A DNA stretch of 64,000 nucleotides from Phyllosticta citribraziliensis (GCF_038025025.1 NW_027117342.1:310001-374000); one strand, 5' to 3'; positions 44,030-60,353 are shown, counted from the stretch's first letter. The notes: generated by a model from the sequence alone, not told the origin. Translations and numbers: made by a program.

Positions 44030-46234
44030 ATGGAGGACAAAGAAAAGAGCAGCAGGGGCATCTCCCTCCGCCGCAAAAAGGAGCAGCGTCCCAAGATCAG
44101 CGCCCCCAAGCAAATCAGCGGCCCGCTGCCCGCCAACCTCCAGGCTCCAGACATCCCCGACGAGTACCGCAGTCGCAACACGTCCGCCTCCAACGTCTCC
44201 ACCCGCTCCGGTGGTGGCACCCGCCTCGATGCCCCGCGAGAGCGCCCCCAGCCCGCCGGCGGCAAGACGTCAGATCTCGTCAAGAGGAGGTACTCGACCA
44301 GGTTCAATCAGCTCCCAAATGACTACACTGCTGGCGCCCCGCCCGTCCCAGGCCTGCCCAGCAAGCCCAACCAGTACATGCGACCGCCTGTCCCAGAGTC
44401 GAGACCGAGTCAGGAGTCCCGGCGGATCAACGTCGACGTCAAGGCGTTCAAGGACCCCAACTTGAGAGCGGACGAATGCAAGTAATGTGTCCAGAGCCGA
44501 GGGCGCAGAGCTAACGTATGGTAGATGTCGCTGGCATTCTCGCAGACGCGTCTGAAGACGACATTCTCCGCTACCAACAGGACCTCCAGAGGGTCAAGAA
44601 TCGCACCTCCACCGACCTGCAACACAACGTGTATCAGAACCGCACGCAGTTCATCAAGATCAGTAAAGAGGCGGACAAGCTCAAGAGTGAAATGAGGACG
44701 CTCAAGGCTCTCATGTCCGACTTGACCAACACGCTTGGCCAGGCCACCTCGACGTCGGGTGGGCTGCGGGGCACGGATGCCGTTGCTCAACGCAGGGCGA
44801 ACCGCAGCTCGGTTGCCAACCTCGAGGCGTTGTGGAACACGCACCTACAGACGTTGTGGAAGCGAGTCGAGGGCTCTCAAAAGTTTCTGCCGGCCATTCC
44901 TGGACGTCACATTGTCTACGAGTCTGGACGCTGGGTGGAGTTGAACTCGGCCACCTGGAAAGTCCGCAGGAGGGTGCACATGATTCTGCTCAACGACCAT
45001 CTTCTTGTTGCGGCGGAAAAGAAGCAAGGAGACAGGCCTCAGAACCGAGAGGCAAAGCCCAATCAACCTGTTCAGCTTGTTGCGGTGAGATGCTGGCCTC
45101 TGCAGGATGTCCAAATGCTCGACTTGTCGACCAAGACGGCCGGCAAGGGTGAATCAGAGAAGAAACGTGCCAACGACTCCATCAACATTCGTGTGGGCGC
45201 CGAATCTTTCACCTTTGGCAGTCCTGGAAGCGATCAGGTTGAGAAGGCGACTCTTTTGTCATCTTTCAGGAAAGCCACGGAGGATTTGCGTAAAACCAAG
45301 GAGGCCGAGACTGAGGAGCGCAGCAAGACCAATGAGTCTGTCAACTACTATGCCACCAGGGACTTGAGCGTATTGAAAGATCAAGACTTGCTCGAGGGTC
45401 TTGGAGAAAACGCGTTGCAGAACCGGTCAAGCATGTTCCTCGAGGTAGACGGCAAGAGGGAGAGCATCCGCTGGGTGGAGCAGCAGCTTGACGAGCTGGA
45501 CATTGACATTGCGCTGCAGCATTTTGAAAAGGCGGTAGACGAGCTCGACCGTCTTCGGCGAATAGCAAAGAGCATCAAGGGCAACCCGCTGGCTCAGGAG
45601 ATTATAGTCTTCAAGGTCAGCGAGCGGTCCGCCAAACTGGCATCGCTCGTGACGCGGCATCTTCAAGAGACTCATAACCGTCCCAACGAAACCAAGCGGC
45701 ACGTTGACTGGTTGGTCCAGCTGGGCTTTGAGGATAGGGCACGGGAGGCCTACCTCGACGCTCGCAGCACAACAATCAAAAAGCGCACGAGGTACTTCAA
45801 GCCCAACCCAACCTGTCACGACTCGAAACTGACCCAGCGGCAGGCAATGCGTCTTCGACGGCGACCTCCACCACTACATCTACCAGATCTCGTACATCTA
45901 CTTCACCATCATCCGCAACACGGTGGTGACGTACCAGTCGTGCTTCCCGGCGACGATGATGTCGGCGTGCGTCAAGTGGGCCAAGGACCACGTCGACGAC
46001 TTCAACTCGATCCTGTCGCGGCAGCTCAGCACCGTCGACCGCGACAGCGCCACGTGGACCGAGTGCATGCAGCGCGCGCAGAAGCACGGCAGCCTGCTCG
46101 CCGGCGTCGGCCTCGACTTCAAGGACCTCATTGGCAAGGGCATCGGCATGGAGGACTCGGGCATCGATCTGAGCAGTGGCCGTTTTGGCCAGGACGCTGT
46201 TGCTGAGTTGGCGGGTTTGGGCTTGGGGACTTAG
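44030..46234 (+). CDS. EXO84: Exocyst subunit Exo84
   Basis: Exons 44030-44477 (GC donor), 44525-45791, 45844-46234. DLQHNVYQNRTQFIKISKE, VEGSQKFLP, PH domain LLNDHLLVA, LGFEDRAREAYL. Confidence 0.93.
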
Positions 46235-49755: not shown

Positions 49756-50088
49756 GGGAGCCCTCTGCTGGCCAGTAGCGATGCTATGGCCTCTTGCGGG
49801 GCGCGTTGAGGGGCATGGATTGTCCAAGCCAGACGCGGGATGGGGTCGCAGGTAGAGCTCGGGAGAGGGATCGAGAAGATGCGCGACGGAGACGCCGCAG
49901 GTTGGAGGTGGTTGAGTTGCAGGAGGTGTGCATCGCATCGGCCAGCAAGGCGCTGACGGGCCGACGGGATGTGCCTGCAGATCGCCAACCCGGGATGACG
50001 AACCAGCGGAAGACGTCTACCACTCACTGCCGCCGAGCCCGCCAAAAACTACAACAACAAAGCTCGACGTTGAAGAAACACCACATGG

Positions 50089-53000
50089 ATGTTGGCTAGC
50101 CGTCTTTCCCACTCCGCCCGTCTTTCTGCGTCCATCTCCAGAAGACTCGCCCTCTTCCAGCCCCAGCCAGCACGTGCTGCGGCCCTGCGCCAGCCTTTTC
50201 GCTTGATGACATCGAGAGCTGCTCAGCCAACACCAAGAGAAGAGCCAGCTACAAAGAGGAGAAGGGTTGACGCCGTCAGCCTTTCTCCACGTGAACACCT
50301 GCACGCTATGGTGGTCCCAATTCCAACAGAGAAAAAAATAGAACTCACAGAAGTCGAGGCAACTCTGCGACGATTGCTCCTCGATGTTGCAGAATACATT
50401 GACAATTCTGCGGCTGCTGCTGAAGATTCTGTCGTCAAAATCCCAGATCAGCTCGCCAAGGAGAAGCTTGTCCTTCGCTTCACAGGAGGATGGGTCCGCG
50501 ACAAGCTGCTCGGTCAGGACAGTAACGACATTGACGTCGCCATTAACAAGATGACGGGCGAAAAATTCGGCCTTCGTCTTAAAGAGTATCTGGAAATTCC
50601 CGGCAATCCCGAAAAGTACGGTTTGGAGGGCGTCTCCAAGTCAGACAAAGCAGGCACTAGCTCGAAAAACAAGCTAGTAGGAGGTCTGCACAAAATCGAG
50701 GCGAATCCAGAAAAGTCGAAGCATCTTGAGACGACCACGACCAAGATTTTGGGACTAGACATTGACCTCGTCAATCTTCGCAAGGAAACGTACACGGACG
50801 ACAGTCGCAATCCCGAGATCGAGTTTGGCACCCCAGAGGAAGACGCTCTCCGGAGAGACGCAACCGTGAATGCCATGTTCTACAACATCAACACCTCGGA
50901 AATCGAAGATTTTACCAACAGGGGATGGGAGGACATGCAACAAAGAATCATCCGTACTCCTCTCGAGCCTTATCAAACTTTCAAGGACGACCCTCTCAGA
51001 GTCTTGCGGTTGATTCGCTTCGCTACTAGACTGGGCTACAGCATCGACTCCGAAGCTGAAAAGTTCATGGGCAACGAGGATATCAAAAAGGCCTTGCACA
51101 TCAAGATCAGCCGTGAGCGTGTGGGTGTAGAACTGGAAAAGATGCTGCGAGGTATGCGCTCTTACGCCAGAACAAATGATTGTACTGACTCAAGATTCAG
51201 GACGGGATCCACTGGGCGCTATCCAGTACATTGACAGGCTAGGTCTCTATGAGACGGTATTCGCAGACCCCACAAAGAACCACGACTACAGACCTCCGTC
51301 CAACTGGGCTGTGGCCTACCAGTGTCTCGCCAGAATCATGCAGTCTGAAGCACCTCACGACCTTGTCCGGACCATGACCATCCATGATGCAGAGGAAGCA
51401 TACACATCGTGGATAATCTCAGCCATAGTCCCTTATGCCGATGCTCCTGAGCCCAAGCCAGTAAAGGCCGGAACCAAGGTCCCTCCCCCAGTCGCAGCAC
51501 AAGTGGTTCGCGAGGCCATCAAGGCGACAAACAAGATTTTCGACGTCATAATTGCTTCCGTCAAGAACCTGGAACACATCACGTCCCTGAAAGACAAGTT
51601 TGCAGTCCAGCAAAGACAGCCGCACAAGAAACAAGAAGGAGAGGATGCTACCGCAAGAGACACCATCGGCATGGCCATCAGGCAATGGGGACAGACTTGG
51701 AGAAGTCAGGCGCTGTTTGCTCTCTTGTACGAGGTCCTGAACAACCCCGACAGGGAGCAAGGTGAGTTAGCCCCCAGCTCTCAAGCAATGCCCGACCTAA
51801 CATTTTCAGAAATCATTGCCTCTTACGGAAATTGGTTCAGTCACATCAAGTCTCAAGACATCACCGAGGCTTACGCCCTCAAGCCTCTCATTGACGGCAA
51901 GACTCTCGCCAAGGCTCTGGAAACGAACCCAGGCCCATGGATGAAAGATGCCCTGGACGTCGTCATGGCATGGCAGTTGCGCAATCCAGACGTCCAAGAC
52001 CCGTCCGAGGCGATCGAGGAAGTCCGCGTCCACCGCAAAAACAACCCCAAGAGCGATGTGGCTGCCAAGGTGTCCAAAAAGAAGGGTGAGCTAACTTCAC
52101 ACCTTGCATCGCACTTCCTACAGCTTACCATCCGCCCGTTGTTTGCAAAGGCACGTAACCCGGAAATCACGGCCCAGGGTCGCAGAGCGATTCAGGCAAG
52201 CCAGCCGCGGACATACCAATCGCTGTCGGTGGTCGAGATGGAAAGCAATCCGTGGAAGAGCGAGAAGAACAAGCATGTACTATCGTTGCTACGCTGGGTA
52301 GTCGCCACCATGGCACCCGAGCGAATCGAACAGTCATGGCCTCTCTTGGTTCCTCCTATCCTCACGCTGCTGGACGACGCTGAGCCCCGGTTCAAGACGA
52401 TTGGCTGCGAACTGCTGTACGGGCTGCTGCACTCGACAACGCCGTCGCTGCTGGCACGCACAGGTCTCGAGCCAGTCTTTCGCAATGCGCTCGAATCTGC
52501 GCTGTCCTACCTGCCTCCCCTCACCCCTGAGCCTGAAAGCACACCCCTGCTCAACGCCGCCTATCCCGCCTTCATCGCCCTGATCAAAGTGACGACGCCA
52601 CAGCCCACAACATCGCCATCTGCATCACCATCCTCAGACTCAAACTCGAGCCCCTCCCCTCTGACTCCTGCCTACGTCGCCCGCGCCAACGCCTTCGCCA
52701 CCCTCCTCTCCTCCCACATCCTCCCCGACCTCGCCCACCAAACCACCATCTCGCCACACGTCGGCACCGCGCGCACCCTGCTCTCCCTCCTCTGCACCCT
52801 CCTGCCGCTCCTCGGCATCCACGCCGTTAAGCACCTCAAAGACCTCGTGCCCCTACTCGCCGCCATCCTGGCAGACCCGCTCGCGCCCGCCGCTCCGCGC
52901 CTGCCGGCCGACGCCGCGCGCGCTGCGCAACAAGTCATACTGACTTCGTGGCCGCGTATGTGGCGGTGGAGAAGCGAGATGCTGAAGGGCGTTGCTGTAG

Positions 53001-53206
53001 CATGGGTGAGATTGGCGGGGGAGACAGAGACTCAATCAGACGAAATGAGTGAGGCGAGGCAGGAGCTGCGAGGATGTGTCGAGCTTCTGTCTACGGTTGT
53101 CGCGGGCGGTGGGGACGAAGAGAAATGGCAATGGGAGGAGGAAGTGGCGCTGTTGGTGAAGAAAGAGGAGAAGTTGAGGTCATTGTTTGAGGGAGTCCGG
53201 GTTTGA
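50089..53206 (+). CDS. CCA1: CCA-adding tRNA nucleotidyltransferase fused in frame to a C-terminal Tti2-like domain
   Basis: Exons 50089-51151, 51201-51761, 51810-53206. GGWVRDKLLG..S.DIDVA, DLVNLRKE, EDALRRDAT.N, DDPLRVLRLIRF, ISRERVG; then without a stop IRPLF..GR..PWK..WPLLVPPILTLLDD..GC..RTGL..YLP.LTP. Confidence 0.92.
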
Positions 53207-53377
53207 GAATTGAAACTAGGCAATGCATCTGCCGTAGTAGAAACGGTGCTCAAACAACCCTCCATAGTCCAGGAACCAATTGCCAATTGCCAGATAGACC
53301 TCTCTCCTACTCTCTGCTTCCTCATGTATACGTGGACACTTTCCTTGCCTCATTTTCTGGCGAACCCACACGACACG

Positions 53378-54025
53378 ATGTGTCCCCTCCAGTGGCGCGA
53401 TTCTCCACCTCCTTATTACACGCCACCAGCACGCTTCACACTCCCTCCAAGAGATCGCGGCACGCGCGCCGAGCACAGCGGCCTCAGAGCACCTCCCGAT
53501 CCCTCACCCACCACACCGCTCCTCGATCCGCGTCCGCACCCTTCCTGTCCTCTCCACACCACCACGCCGCCCTGCAGGTGGTGCCAGCACGTAGAACCGG
53601 AAGCTCCCAGCCACCGCTCGCCCACCGACCTCGTCCGCATCTGCCTCATGCTCCTCGTCCCCATCTCGTTCCTCATCGTCGACAGCACGCTGGTCGTCTT
53701 CGACGCCGCCGACGCCACCGCCTTGCGGCGGGCGAATGCATTTGTAGCGGGCTGGGCGGCGGCGCTGCTGCTTCTGGCGGATCTGCTCATGGACCGCGTG
53801 GTTTGCCGAGCGAGGCGGAAGATGAACTTGACGACGACACAGCCGTTTATCGCGTTCTTGTTCTACATGACGATTGTCGCGCTTGTTATTTTCGTGGTTG
53901 CGGTGAGTTGAGTCTCTGGATGATGATGGCTGTGCTGCTTTGTGGCGTGCGCTGACGCTTGCAAGTTCAACTTGAGGATAGGTTGGGAGGGACGTGGAGG
54001 CCGTCCAGACGGCGAGGCCGCGTGA
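53378..54025 (+). CDS. Hypothetical small membrane protein (three hydrophobic segments)
   Basis: ATG 53378 (53324 is an alternative); Pro-rich N-terminus with PPPYY; TM-like segments; likely intron 53903-53965 (GTGAGT..GCTGAC..AAG) and last exon to TGA 54025. Confidence 0.55.
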
Positions 54026-57993: not shown

Positions 57994-60353
57994 CTACCTC
58001 CTCTCCGGGGTCTTGGGCGGCTCCTCCTGCTCCACGGGCTGATACATGACGGCGGTGCCGGCACTAGCCATGCTGCTAGCGCGGGACCCAGCGCCGGGCC
58101 TCAGCGGGGCAGGGACATCGACGCCCTCCTCCTCGACATCCGCATCCGTCGCCTCCATCAGCGCGCTCGTCTGCTGCGCGTGCAGGCTCAGCTCCGGCTC
58201 CTCGTCGAGCGGCCACGTGTTGCCGTCGGGGCTGCCGCCGACCAGCGCGGCCGCCGGCCCCCGCGAGAAGCGGTGGGAGCTGGACAGCCGGCTCGCGAAG
58301 CCGGATCCGCTCAGCGTCTCGGCGGAGTGCGAGCGCGGCCGCGAGTTGCCTCCTGGCCGGACGGCCGCGGACGGGCTGCCGCTGCCGTGTTGGGGCGACG
58401 AGGCGTTGGCGGACTGGCTGGACGTCGGGCGCGCGTCAGCCTGCTGCGCGAGGGCGCGCTGCGGGTTGTAGAAGGGCTGCATGGGGCCGTCGAGCAGGCT
58501 GTTGGCCTCGACGCCGACGTTGGTCGCGTAGGGGTCGAGGTAGCGCGAGAAGCCGCTGGAGCGGCTCTGGCGATCGGGGGAGGCCGGGCGGCCCGTCATG
58601 CCCGACTGCGTCGAGATGCGGCGCTCCATGCGCGACAGGCGGTTGTCCAGCAGGCGCATGGTTTCGTACTCGGAGGCGCGGCGCGAGTGGCGCGTGTCAA
58701 AGTCCTCGAGGCGCGACAGGCGCGCGTCGATGCGGTCGAGCGTGTCGAGCGACGCGTGGCGGTTGTGGCTGCCGGCGGCGCCGTCCTTGCTGTCCTTGCC
58801 AGAGCTGTTGGCCGCGGCGCCGCCGTCCAGATGCGACAGGCGGCGCTCGATGCGGACGAGAAGGTCGTCGGCGGCGTTGTTGTGGCGCGGGTTCTCCTCG
58901 AGGCTTGTGAGACGGCGGTCCAGCGAGACGAGCAGCTCCACCACCTTGTCGAGCTTGTCCGCCGACGAGAGCTGTGACAGCGTGGAGCCAGCGGATTGGC
59001 TGGTGAACGGAATCTTGGGGACGGGCGGGATGCTCTCCTTCTCCTTGTCCTTCTCCGACTTGGAAAAGGCCGGCTTGGGCGACTCGGGCAACAGTAGGTG
59101 GTCTTTGGACAGCGCGGCAGTGGTACCCGAGATGGCGCTCTGCGGCTCGGCCTCCAGATCGAAACGGTGGCGCTTGAAGTCGGTCTTGAGCTTGAGCGGC
59201 TCGTCGTCGAACGTCTCTTCCTCGGTGTAGACGCCATTGTTGAGACCCGAGGCCTGGGCGGCGGCGCGCTCGCGCATGCTGTAGCCGCTGTCGTACTTCC
59301 TGGCGTGCTTGTCGTCCAAGTTGGACACGGGGGCGTAGCTGCCGGGTCCACTGGCTCCGTCGGGGATGTAGAAGCGGAGGTCAATGCGGAGGATGATGTA
59401 CAGGTAGACGACCATAATCTCAACGGTAAAGTTGAAAATATAAAAGCACGCCTTGGAGTAGTAGGTAGGCAGAGGCTGACGAACAGACACGGGATCCTTC
59501 CATGCCGTGCCGCAGCGGTAGCACGCTCCGAGACACAGTAAGAAAGAAGCCAGCAAAAGGATCGTCACCTTTGTGCGGAAGCGACCAGAGCCAAACTTCT
59601 CAAGGCGCGTCTTGCGGGGAGCGAGGATGCCGATAATGGTGATGGGTATCGGCAGGAACGAGACAAACGAAAAGTAGGTCGCCGTGTAGAGCTGAATGTC
59701 ACGGTCGATCCGGTGCGTGTTCGTATTTTTCGTGTAAAAGGACTGCACGGTGACGGTGATGACCATGATCAAAGAGCAGACAATGATGAAGTAGTTAACC
59801 TTGAACAAGGCCGAAAAGGGCTTCGACCAGCCGAGCTTGGGGTGCCGGGCGCGGATCAGTCTCTGGGTGAAGAGCAGGTTGATGATGAAGATCAAGAGCA
59901 CACCAGCAGCCACGAAAATCTGGGCTGCGATACCAAGCTTGATGTTCTTGGGCTGCGTGGCCCACGAGATCCGGAGTATACAAGTCAGCACCCTACACAT
60001 GCAGAACGCTATGCATCGTGTTAGCTTGTTGTGAATGAGCCCGTGGTCAGGTCTGCTCACCAAACAGCATAATGGACATGAGGAATTTGTGATTCCTCTT
60101 GCGGTTCTTTTGGAAAATGGCCATGTGCCCAACGGCACCCAGCAGGAAGAGGAAGAGAAAGACGGATGTGACGGGAATGTCCGTCCCTTCGTCGACTCTT
60201 CCGCCCAATTGCCATGTTGTTGGCGCATACGGCGGTCCGGTGGGAGGGCCTCCCTGTTGCTGTTAGAACAACATTTCTGAGAATCGACAAAAGACTTACT
60301 TGGCCACCCTGGCCCTGGCCACCTTGGCCTTGGCCTTGTTGTTGAGATGACAT
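57994..60353 (-). CDS. DUF3112-like fungal multi-pass membrane protein with long C-terminal tail
   Basis: Exons 60353-60300, 60253-60061, 60008-57994. GPPY.P....LGG....DIP...VFL.LF..GA..HM..NHKF, RISWA..P.N..IAAQIFVAAGV, EKFG.GRFRTK, FYIFNFTVE, RIDLRFYIPDG. Confidence 0.85.

Follow-up and report, generated by a model that had tools for sequence, protein, structure and literature searches.

Fungi are known to derive two products from one gene by leaky RNA processing, as in the intron retention of yeast PTC7 and in cryptic peroxisomal isoforms that arise by splicing or read-through. The locus described here resembles these cases in that a minor isoform from incomplete RNA processing would have an essential or distinct role of its own; it differs in that the PTC7 and peroxisomal examples relocate one enzyme, whereas the CCA1-Tti2 switch would supply a second, unrelated protein. 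Exitrons are introns inside a coding stretch that are stop-free if retained and have weak splice signals, and whose splicing, when their length is not a multiple of three, leads to a frameshift and an early stop (Marquez et al. 2015, PMC4484396); the legend to Fig. 1 of that paper gives the retained form as the major isoform. The intron considered here (the switch intron) is exitron-like in lying inside an ORF, in containing no stop if retained, in its coding-type conservation and in combining canonical GT-AG borders with weak signals. In contrast to exitrons, the spliced form is the assembled one in all three sequencing runs that span the joint (contigs, not read ratios) and encodes a complete essential enzyme instead of a truncated or decay-bound variant, while the retained form would add an unrelated essential protein, and a whole fungal class shares the intron's length and signals.

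The locus lies on the plus strand of a 64,000-nt stretch of fungal DNA (the window); the closest relatives with a name belong to Phyllosticta (Dothideomycetes), at 71-94% identity. Once the introns at 51152-51200 and 51762-51809 are removed, translation yields a single ORF of 1006 aa from the ATG at 50089 to a stop codon ending at 53206. The original prediction, that the frame of a CCA-adding enzyme (CCA1) runs on into a Tti2 segment, thus describes the genomic sequence correctly, and the Tti2 motifs it named are all in frame. Exon 1 (50089-51151) encodes a presequence-like N-terminus and the nucleotidyltransferase head, exon 2 (51201-51761; translation and contigs) the body of the enzyme, and the CCA1 part of exon 3 (51810-52085) its tail domain and a variable Lys-rich linker that includes Met586 (51941) and Met594 (51965). 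Introns 1 (49 nt) and 2 (48 nt, with a consensus CTAAC branch site) are ordinary and absent from the contigs of all four runs. Intron 2 is in frame and stop-free in this sequence, so that ORF finders give a 676-aa frame from 51176.

The CCA1 part resembles the class II CCA-adding enzymes (yeast Cca1, S. pombe cca1/cca2, human TRNT1) in its head, catalytic motifs and tail domain. PF01743 (PolyA_pol) matches the N-terminal part with an E value of 1.9e-24, in agreement with the identity first assigned, and the DxD carboxylates and the GGWVRD and EDxxRRD motifs are present in the translation. An exon-3 profile matches residues 413-486 of the S. pombe cca1/cca2 chains 9ns2/9ns4. In the structural model of exon 3 the predicted tail helices end at residue 76 and the splice donor falls at residue 92; the body and tail of CCA1 are complete before the splice joint. 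The genome that contains the locus (G000) has one PolyA_pol match, at this locus, which suggests, as far as sequence can tell, that the enzyme would carry out the full CCA addition. It differs from its class in that only removal of the switch intron provides CCA1 with its stop codon, the minor form carrying 373 further residues.

Several in-frame ATGs (50089, 50206 and 50308 in exon 1) and a presequence-like leader are likewise shared with the class, and multiple starts are described for yeast CCA1 in PMC9917222. Residues 1-39 resemble a mitochondrial presequence (seven Arg/Lys, no Asp/Glu) and residues 40-73 form a basic, NLS-like stretch. The points where contigs of runs X1 and X3 start (50144 and 50175) have the first ATG upstream and the second downstream, although a contig end is not a transcript start. 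Alternative CCA1 starts would multiply the two splice forms.

Residues 634-1006 of the retained form (52085-53206) are an N-terminally truncated Tti2. Translation of 52016-53203 matches PF10521 (Tti2) with an E value of 5.4e-66 and 223 bits against a cut-off of 25.2, over profile positions 33-278 of 279 (domain match at 52079-52888), which bears out the Tti2 identity originally recognised from motifs. A profile of this part matches the human TTI2 chains 9wjy_B, 7f4u_C and 7ole_J (E 4e-7 to 2e-6), whereas a phmmer search of the PDB with a stand-alone Tti2 (P0281) gave no match where a profile did. Like the Tti2/TTI2 proteins (PF10521; PDB 7f4u, 7ole, 9wjy), which belong to the Tel2-Tti1-Tti2 (TTT) co-chaperone that TOR-type kinases (PIKKs) require for their assembly, exon 3 is modelled as a HEAT-type solenoid. 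A fold search with this model returned generic HEAT/ARM solenoids only (best Z 18.8, rmsd 5.4, 307 residues aligned); TTI2 chains were absent among the best 50 listed, which is uninformative either way. G000 contains a single Tti2 match, at the locus, and a search for a stand-alone TTI2, one of the checks suggested at the outset, found none in this genome: the P0281 query matches only the fused locus, from its residue 186. Tti1 and Tel2 are present on other contigs of G000. The fused Tti2 differs from its homologs in lacking a start of its own and about 185-200 N-terminal residues, in whose place stands CCA1, and its expression would depend on intron retention.

Contigs of four runs (X1, X2, X3 and X6; three or more only presumed to be RNA) were aligned to 49900-53500. 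X1 and X2 derive from organism A and X3 from organism B, in three studies, and X6 from a relative about 93% identical; contigs lacking the three GT-AG introns are cDNA-like. The 65 nt at 52086-52150 (GT..AG) are skipped in contigs of X1, X2 and X3, all the runs that span the joint; in X6 no contig crosses 51949-52149. As 65 nt do not divide into whole codons, splicing shifts the frame, which then ends at the stop codon 52156-52158, two codons past the joint, giving a CCA1 of 635 aa, and the Tti2 part is untranslated or out of frame on this mRNA. The statement in the original prediction that the frame has no stop therefore holds for the unspliced joint and fails for the spliced one. The switch intron encodes residues 634-655 of the fusion, a single predicted helix (model residues 93-112, pLDDT 93-97) ending in IRPLF; because this helix is conserved in Tti2, production of Tti2 needs the intron retained. 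No retained transcript of the locus was found in the contigs of the four runs, an assembly product that drops rare forms. An X6 contig begins exactly at 52150, which may mark a graph branch between the two forms and is not counted as evidence.

The intron was compared across metagenome loci found with a junction alignment; 80 loci were returned, of 87 confirmed stretches. Two loci cut by contig ends (L080, L081) and one spliced (L082) were left out, and the other 77 with the window make up 78 rows, which group into 38 clusters when 80% identity is taken as the limit. As these clusters are related to one another and a CCA-tail pattern served to find them, the counts are not independent trials. 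The 5' splice site GTGAGC (52086-52091), written in Gly/Ser-Glu-Leu codons, occurs in 38 of 38 clusters, with Gly always GGT (25/25, background 0.21), Ser always AGT (13/13, background 0.10) and Glu always GAG (38/38, background 0.45). Leu of a Leu-Thr pair is CTT in 37 of 38 clusters (background 0.16), which creates CTTAC 24 nt before the acceptor (52124-52128 in the window), the predicted weak branch site by its position and sequence. The 3' splice site is an AAG Lys codon (52148-52150); 34 of 38 clusters have AAG or CAG here, and the other four an in-phase CAG nearby. Nearby control residues, equally conserved, use all synonymous codons. A consensus CTRAY branch is present in one of 38 switch introns versus 19 of 20 upstream introns (intron-2 boundaries being delimited heuristically in 20 of the 38 clusters, with some donors doubtful). 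The branch site of the switch intron looks deliberately weak, for the Leu could equally be written as CTA or CTG.

With intron ends predicted as the first suitable AG 3' of the branch site, 78 of 78 introns have a length of 3n+2 (65 nt in 73, 71 nt in four, 62 nt in one). A stop follows 1-29 codons after the predicted splice in all 77 introns with sufficient sequence, at a median distance of four codons compared with 27 in the same shifted frame downstream; 32 of 37 clusters have it no more than 12 codons away, as against 28% of 6327 control positions. In the left-out metagenome contig L082 the junction is the very one that its genomic relative L028 predicts. The intron is also constrained as coding sequence: it is free of stops and frameshifts in 78 of 78 rows, and at positions outside the signals conservation is 0.74, 0.83 and 0.53 by codon position (34 clusters). 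The IRPLF-type motif is kept in 52 of 52 representative stand-alone Tti2 proteins, while the Leu-Thr that precedes it is found in 0 of 52 stand-alone versus 26 of 36 fused-type proteins, and Gly/Ser-Glu-Leu/Pro in one of 52 versus 32 of 36. Stand-alone Tti2 thus keeps IRPLF without the signal residues, which implies that the splice signals were written into an ancestral Tti2 coding sequence. In 19 of 38 clusters the last part of the donor is shared with a branch-like CTNAC (52086-52095 in the window; loci L003-L079), which is CTCAC in nine, CTTAC in eight and CTAAC in two; it may be only Leu-Thr codons, or may hinder splicing. That the branch-like GCTAAC at 52090 in the window belongs to a separate acceptor was rejected, the RNA contigs using the acceptor at 52150.

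Both forms occur as ORFs in relatives, on contigs that appear to be RNA-derived as they lack the introns. In a Botryosphaeria dothidea cluster, of which 15 of 18 members were listed, spliced ORFs of 583 aa occur on 21 contigs (P0195) and on two among the members listed, a 581-aa form on one (P0201; acceptor two codons later, frameshift kept), and a 920-aa fusion on one contig of 3,073 nt (P0199), collinear with a spliced NCBI model; the genomic-type ORF of this cluster starts inside intron 2. In a Cenococcum geophilum cluster (15 of 45 members listed) a spliced form of 609 aa (P0209) is found on 12 contigs and a fusion of 932 aa (P0212) on two of up to 3,411 nt, again among the members listed, and genomic ORFs enter intron 2 and then stop. 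P0072, on a contig of 3,243 nt, is a third fusion free of intron 2. In the two relatives spliced ORFs are on more contigs than retained ones, contig counts not being read-level ratios, and the retained-form ORFs lie on short-read contigs, which can join two transcripts or stem from immature RNA. NCBI proteins include pairs that diverge at the donor, of 974 and 625 aa in Verruconis gallopava (the 625-aa protein being named "variant") and of 905 and 552 aa in Ascochyta lentis.

Models with both parts account for 57 of the 120 matches listed in one protein search and for 99 of 120 in another, which agrees with the earlier supposition that the fusion already exists in annotations of related fungi. 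Our literature search, whose coverage was incomplete, especially for subscription papers, and which did not extend to supplements, found no description of the fusion or of the switch; PMC3577648, taken up as a paper on fungal CCA1 splicing, was rejected, CCA1 there being a plant clock gene. As to the phylogenetic distribution, fused-type junctions are found in named Dothideomycetes, in Arthoniomycetes (Chrysothrix, Coniocarpon, Alyxoria), and in Xylona and Sarea, whereas some models from Aspergillus, Helicocarpus, Fusarium and Teloschistes join a Tti2 of full length to CCA1, at junctions unrelated to these. In one Teloschistes assembly CCA1 and Tti2 are consecutive locus tags. CCA1 and a full-length TTI2 are apparently same-strand neighbours in Eurotiomycetes, Sordariomycetes and Lecanoromycetes (P0289, P0272, P0311, P0382, P0383/P0288), merged in some models. 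We infer an ancestral head-to-tail arrangement of CCA1 and TTI2, in which a deletion would have taken away the spacer together with the 5' part of TTI2; the intron would then have restored a free CCA1.

With splicing at the joint, conservation of its signals, the coding constraint on the intron and the occurrence of both forms as ORFs in relatives established, we propose that one gene gives rise to two essential proteins through incomplete splicing of a 65-nt intron that doubles as coding sequence. Splicing, with its frameshift and the stop two codons later, yields an ordinary CCA-adding enzyme; retention, presumably in a minor fraction of messages, would yield the 1006-aa CCA1-Tti2 as the sole source of Tti2, whose C-terminal HEAT repeats would bind Tti1 in the TTT co-chaperone. 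The conserved sub-optimal branch site would keep splicing leaky and so provide a low level of Tti2 from the CCA1 promoter, with the fusion being translated, staying whole and working in TTT. We consider such a conserved exitron-like switch, with mostly spliced CCA1 and a minor retained fusion, to be probable.

The proposal requires that Tti2 can act without its N-terminal region. A median of 200 aa precede IRPLF in 52 stand-alone proteins; Pfam PF10521 positions 1-32 are absent from the fused part, as is the region that aligns, weakly, to residues 1 to ~185 of human TTI2. According to PMC8278493, TTI1 co-purified with human TTI2 1-193 but not with 194-508, a fragment that was barely soluble, and PMC4889661 describes N-terminal truncations of yeast Tti2 as inviable. 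The latter source also gives yeast as viable on very low Tti2, the normal level being ~1,470 molecules per cell, and this low need fits supply by a minor isoform. A predicted complex between exon 3 and the last 509 aa of the Tti1 of G000 scored 0.78 in three runs (best control 0.01), at least 84% of contacts being shared and partner pLDDT being at least 72; the score mark is reached by 51 of 78 solved and two of 108 mismatched pairs (39/65 and 2/126 for eukaryotes), and because the human TTT complex has been solved, the prediction may reflect likeness to, or memory of, that structure only. The predicted interface (52655-53167, fusion residues ~824-994) lies in the retained C-terminal repeats and includes positions that are invariant or nearly so in both the Tti2 and the Tti1 families.

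If the proposal is correct, two unrelated essential proteins would depend on a single gene and on a coding intron that shifts the frame, occurs class-wide and has a weak branch site that is apparently conserved. Most Dothideomycete CCA1 models in databases (~900-1000 aa) would then describe the minor product, and knock-outs or tags of the gene would affect two pathways. The locus would offer a natural experiment on the part of Tti2 that is required, the published human and yeast data disagreeing with our prediction, and the 65-nt element, the splicing rate of which could be altered by synonymous edits, would allow Tti2 dose to be tested against PIKK levels. A bolder version, which we think unlikely, is that the switch is regulated, nutrients or stress shifting splicing to trade CCA1 against Tti2 and tune the assembly of TOR, ATM, ATR and Tra1, and that the CCA moiety replaces the lost Tti2 N-terminus, coupling the status of tRNA ends to PIKK maturation across the largest ascomycete class.

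Among the alternatives, the one that survives best is that the intron is kept mainly on a separate, shorter transcript, which starts inside CCA1 exon 2-3 and is translated from Met586 or Met594 into a Tti2 of ~415-420 aa with a short CCA1-derived leader, so that the locus would be two overlapping genes making little fusion. Such a product would be near the size of yeast Tti2 (421 aa), every one of the 174 fused-type proteins checked has a Met after the CCA tail motif and before the donor, and short-read contigs cannot phase distant exons. Similar Mets are present in non-fused CCA1 tails (P0187, P0383), and may thus be kept for the enzyme; no sign of a start within CCA1 exon 2-3 was found, and the full-length retained ORFs of P0199, P0212 and P0072 lie on transcript-sized contigs. 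We regard this arrangement as unlikely, though it deserves consideration before the others.

The original prediction had interpreted the open frame as a constitutive fusion, linking tRNA 3'-end maturation to PIKK assembly, or as a polyprotein to be cleaved. The flexible, length-variable linker and the prevalence of fused database models accord with this, but in three studies the assembled RNA has the joint spliced and the frame closed by a stop, giving CCA1 alone, with fusion arising only if the 65-nt intron is retained, and the conservation of the splice signals and of the early stop is at odds with it as well. A constitutive fusion as the main product is largely refuted and the interpretation as a whole is very improbable; cleavage of the minor retained product is possible, and compatible with leaky splicing.

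An equally slender chance attaches to re-initiation on a bicistronic spliced mRNA at Met685 (52238) or Met709, which would give a Tti2 of 298-322 aa and make retention irrelevant. In-frame ATGs are indeed present at 52238 and 52310, the predicted Tti1 interface lies downstream of both, and CCA1 and TTI2 adjoin in other classes. Re-initiation is disfavoured because an in-frame Met precedes the PWK motif in only 10 of 31 clusters, and none occurs up to the PP motif in eight of 31; it also leaves the protein-type conservation of the intron unexplained. That the Tti2 part is a truncated remnant, its retention splicing noise and the PIKKs mature without Tti2, is hardly credible in spite of the lost N-terminal third and the inviable yeast truncations (as described in PMC4889661), given an open frame and conserved residues in 77 loci, as well as across Dothideomycetes and Arthoniomycetes, and a predicted interface whose residues vary little or not at all on either Tti2 or Tti1.

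The surroundings of the CCA1-Tti2 locus were also inspected. TRS85 (a TRAPP III subunit, PF12739) is on the minus strand, its start some 150 bp away from the first ATG of CCA1, and the interval between the two genes (49938-50089) is likely a bidirectional promoter. Contigs of X1 and X3 extend beyond the Tti2 stop, that of X1 by ~710 nt past 53500, which may represent a long 3' UTR, read-through or merged overlapping transcripts; under the X1 extension lies a 195-aa ORF (53324-53911) without a Pfam match, the C-terminal half of which is hydrophobic. The other neighbours are ordinary: EXO84 (exocyst) at 44518-46206 and a gene for a DUF3112 membrane protein at 57994-60228.
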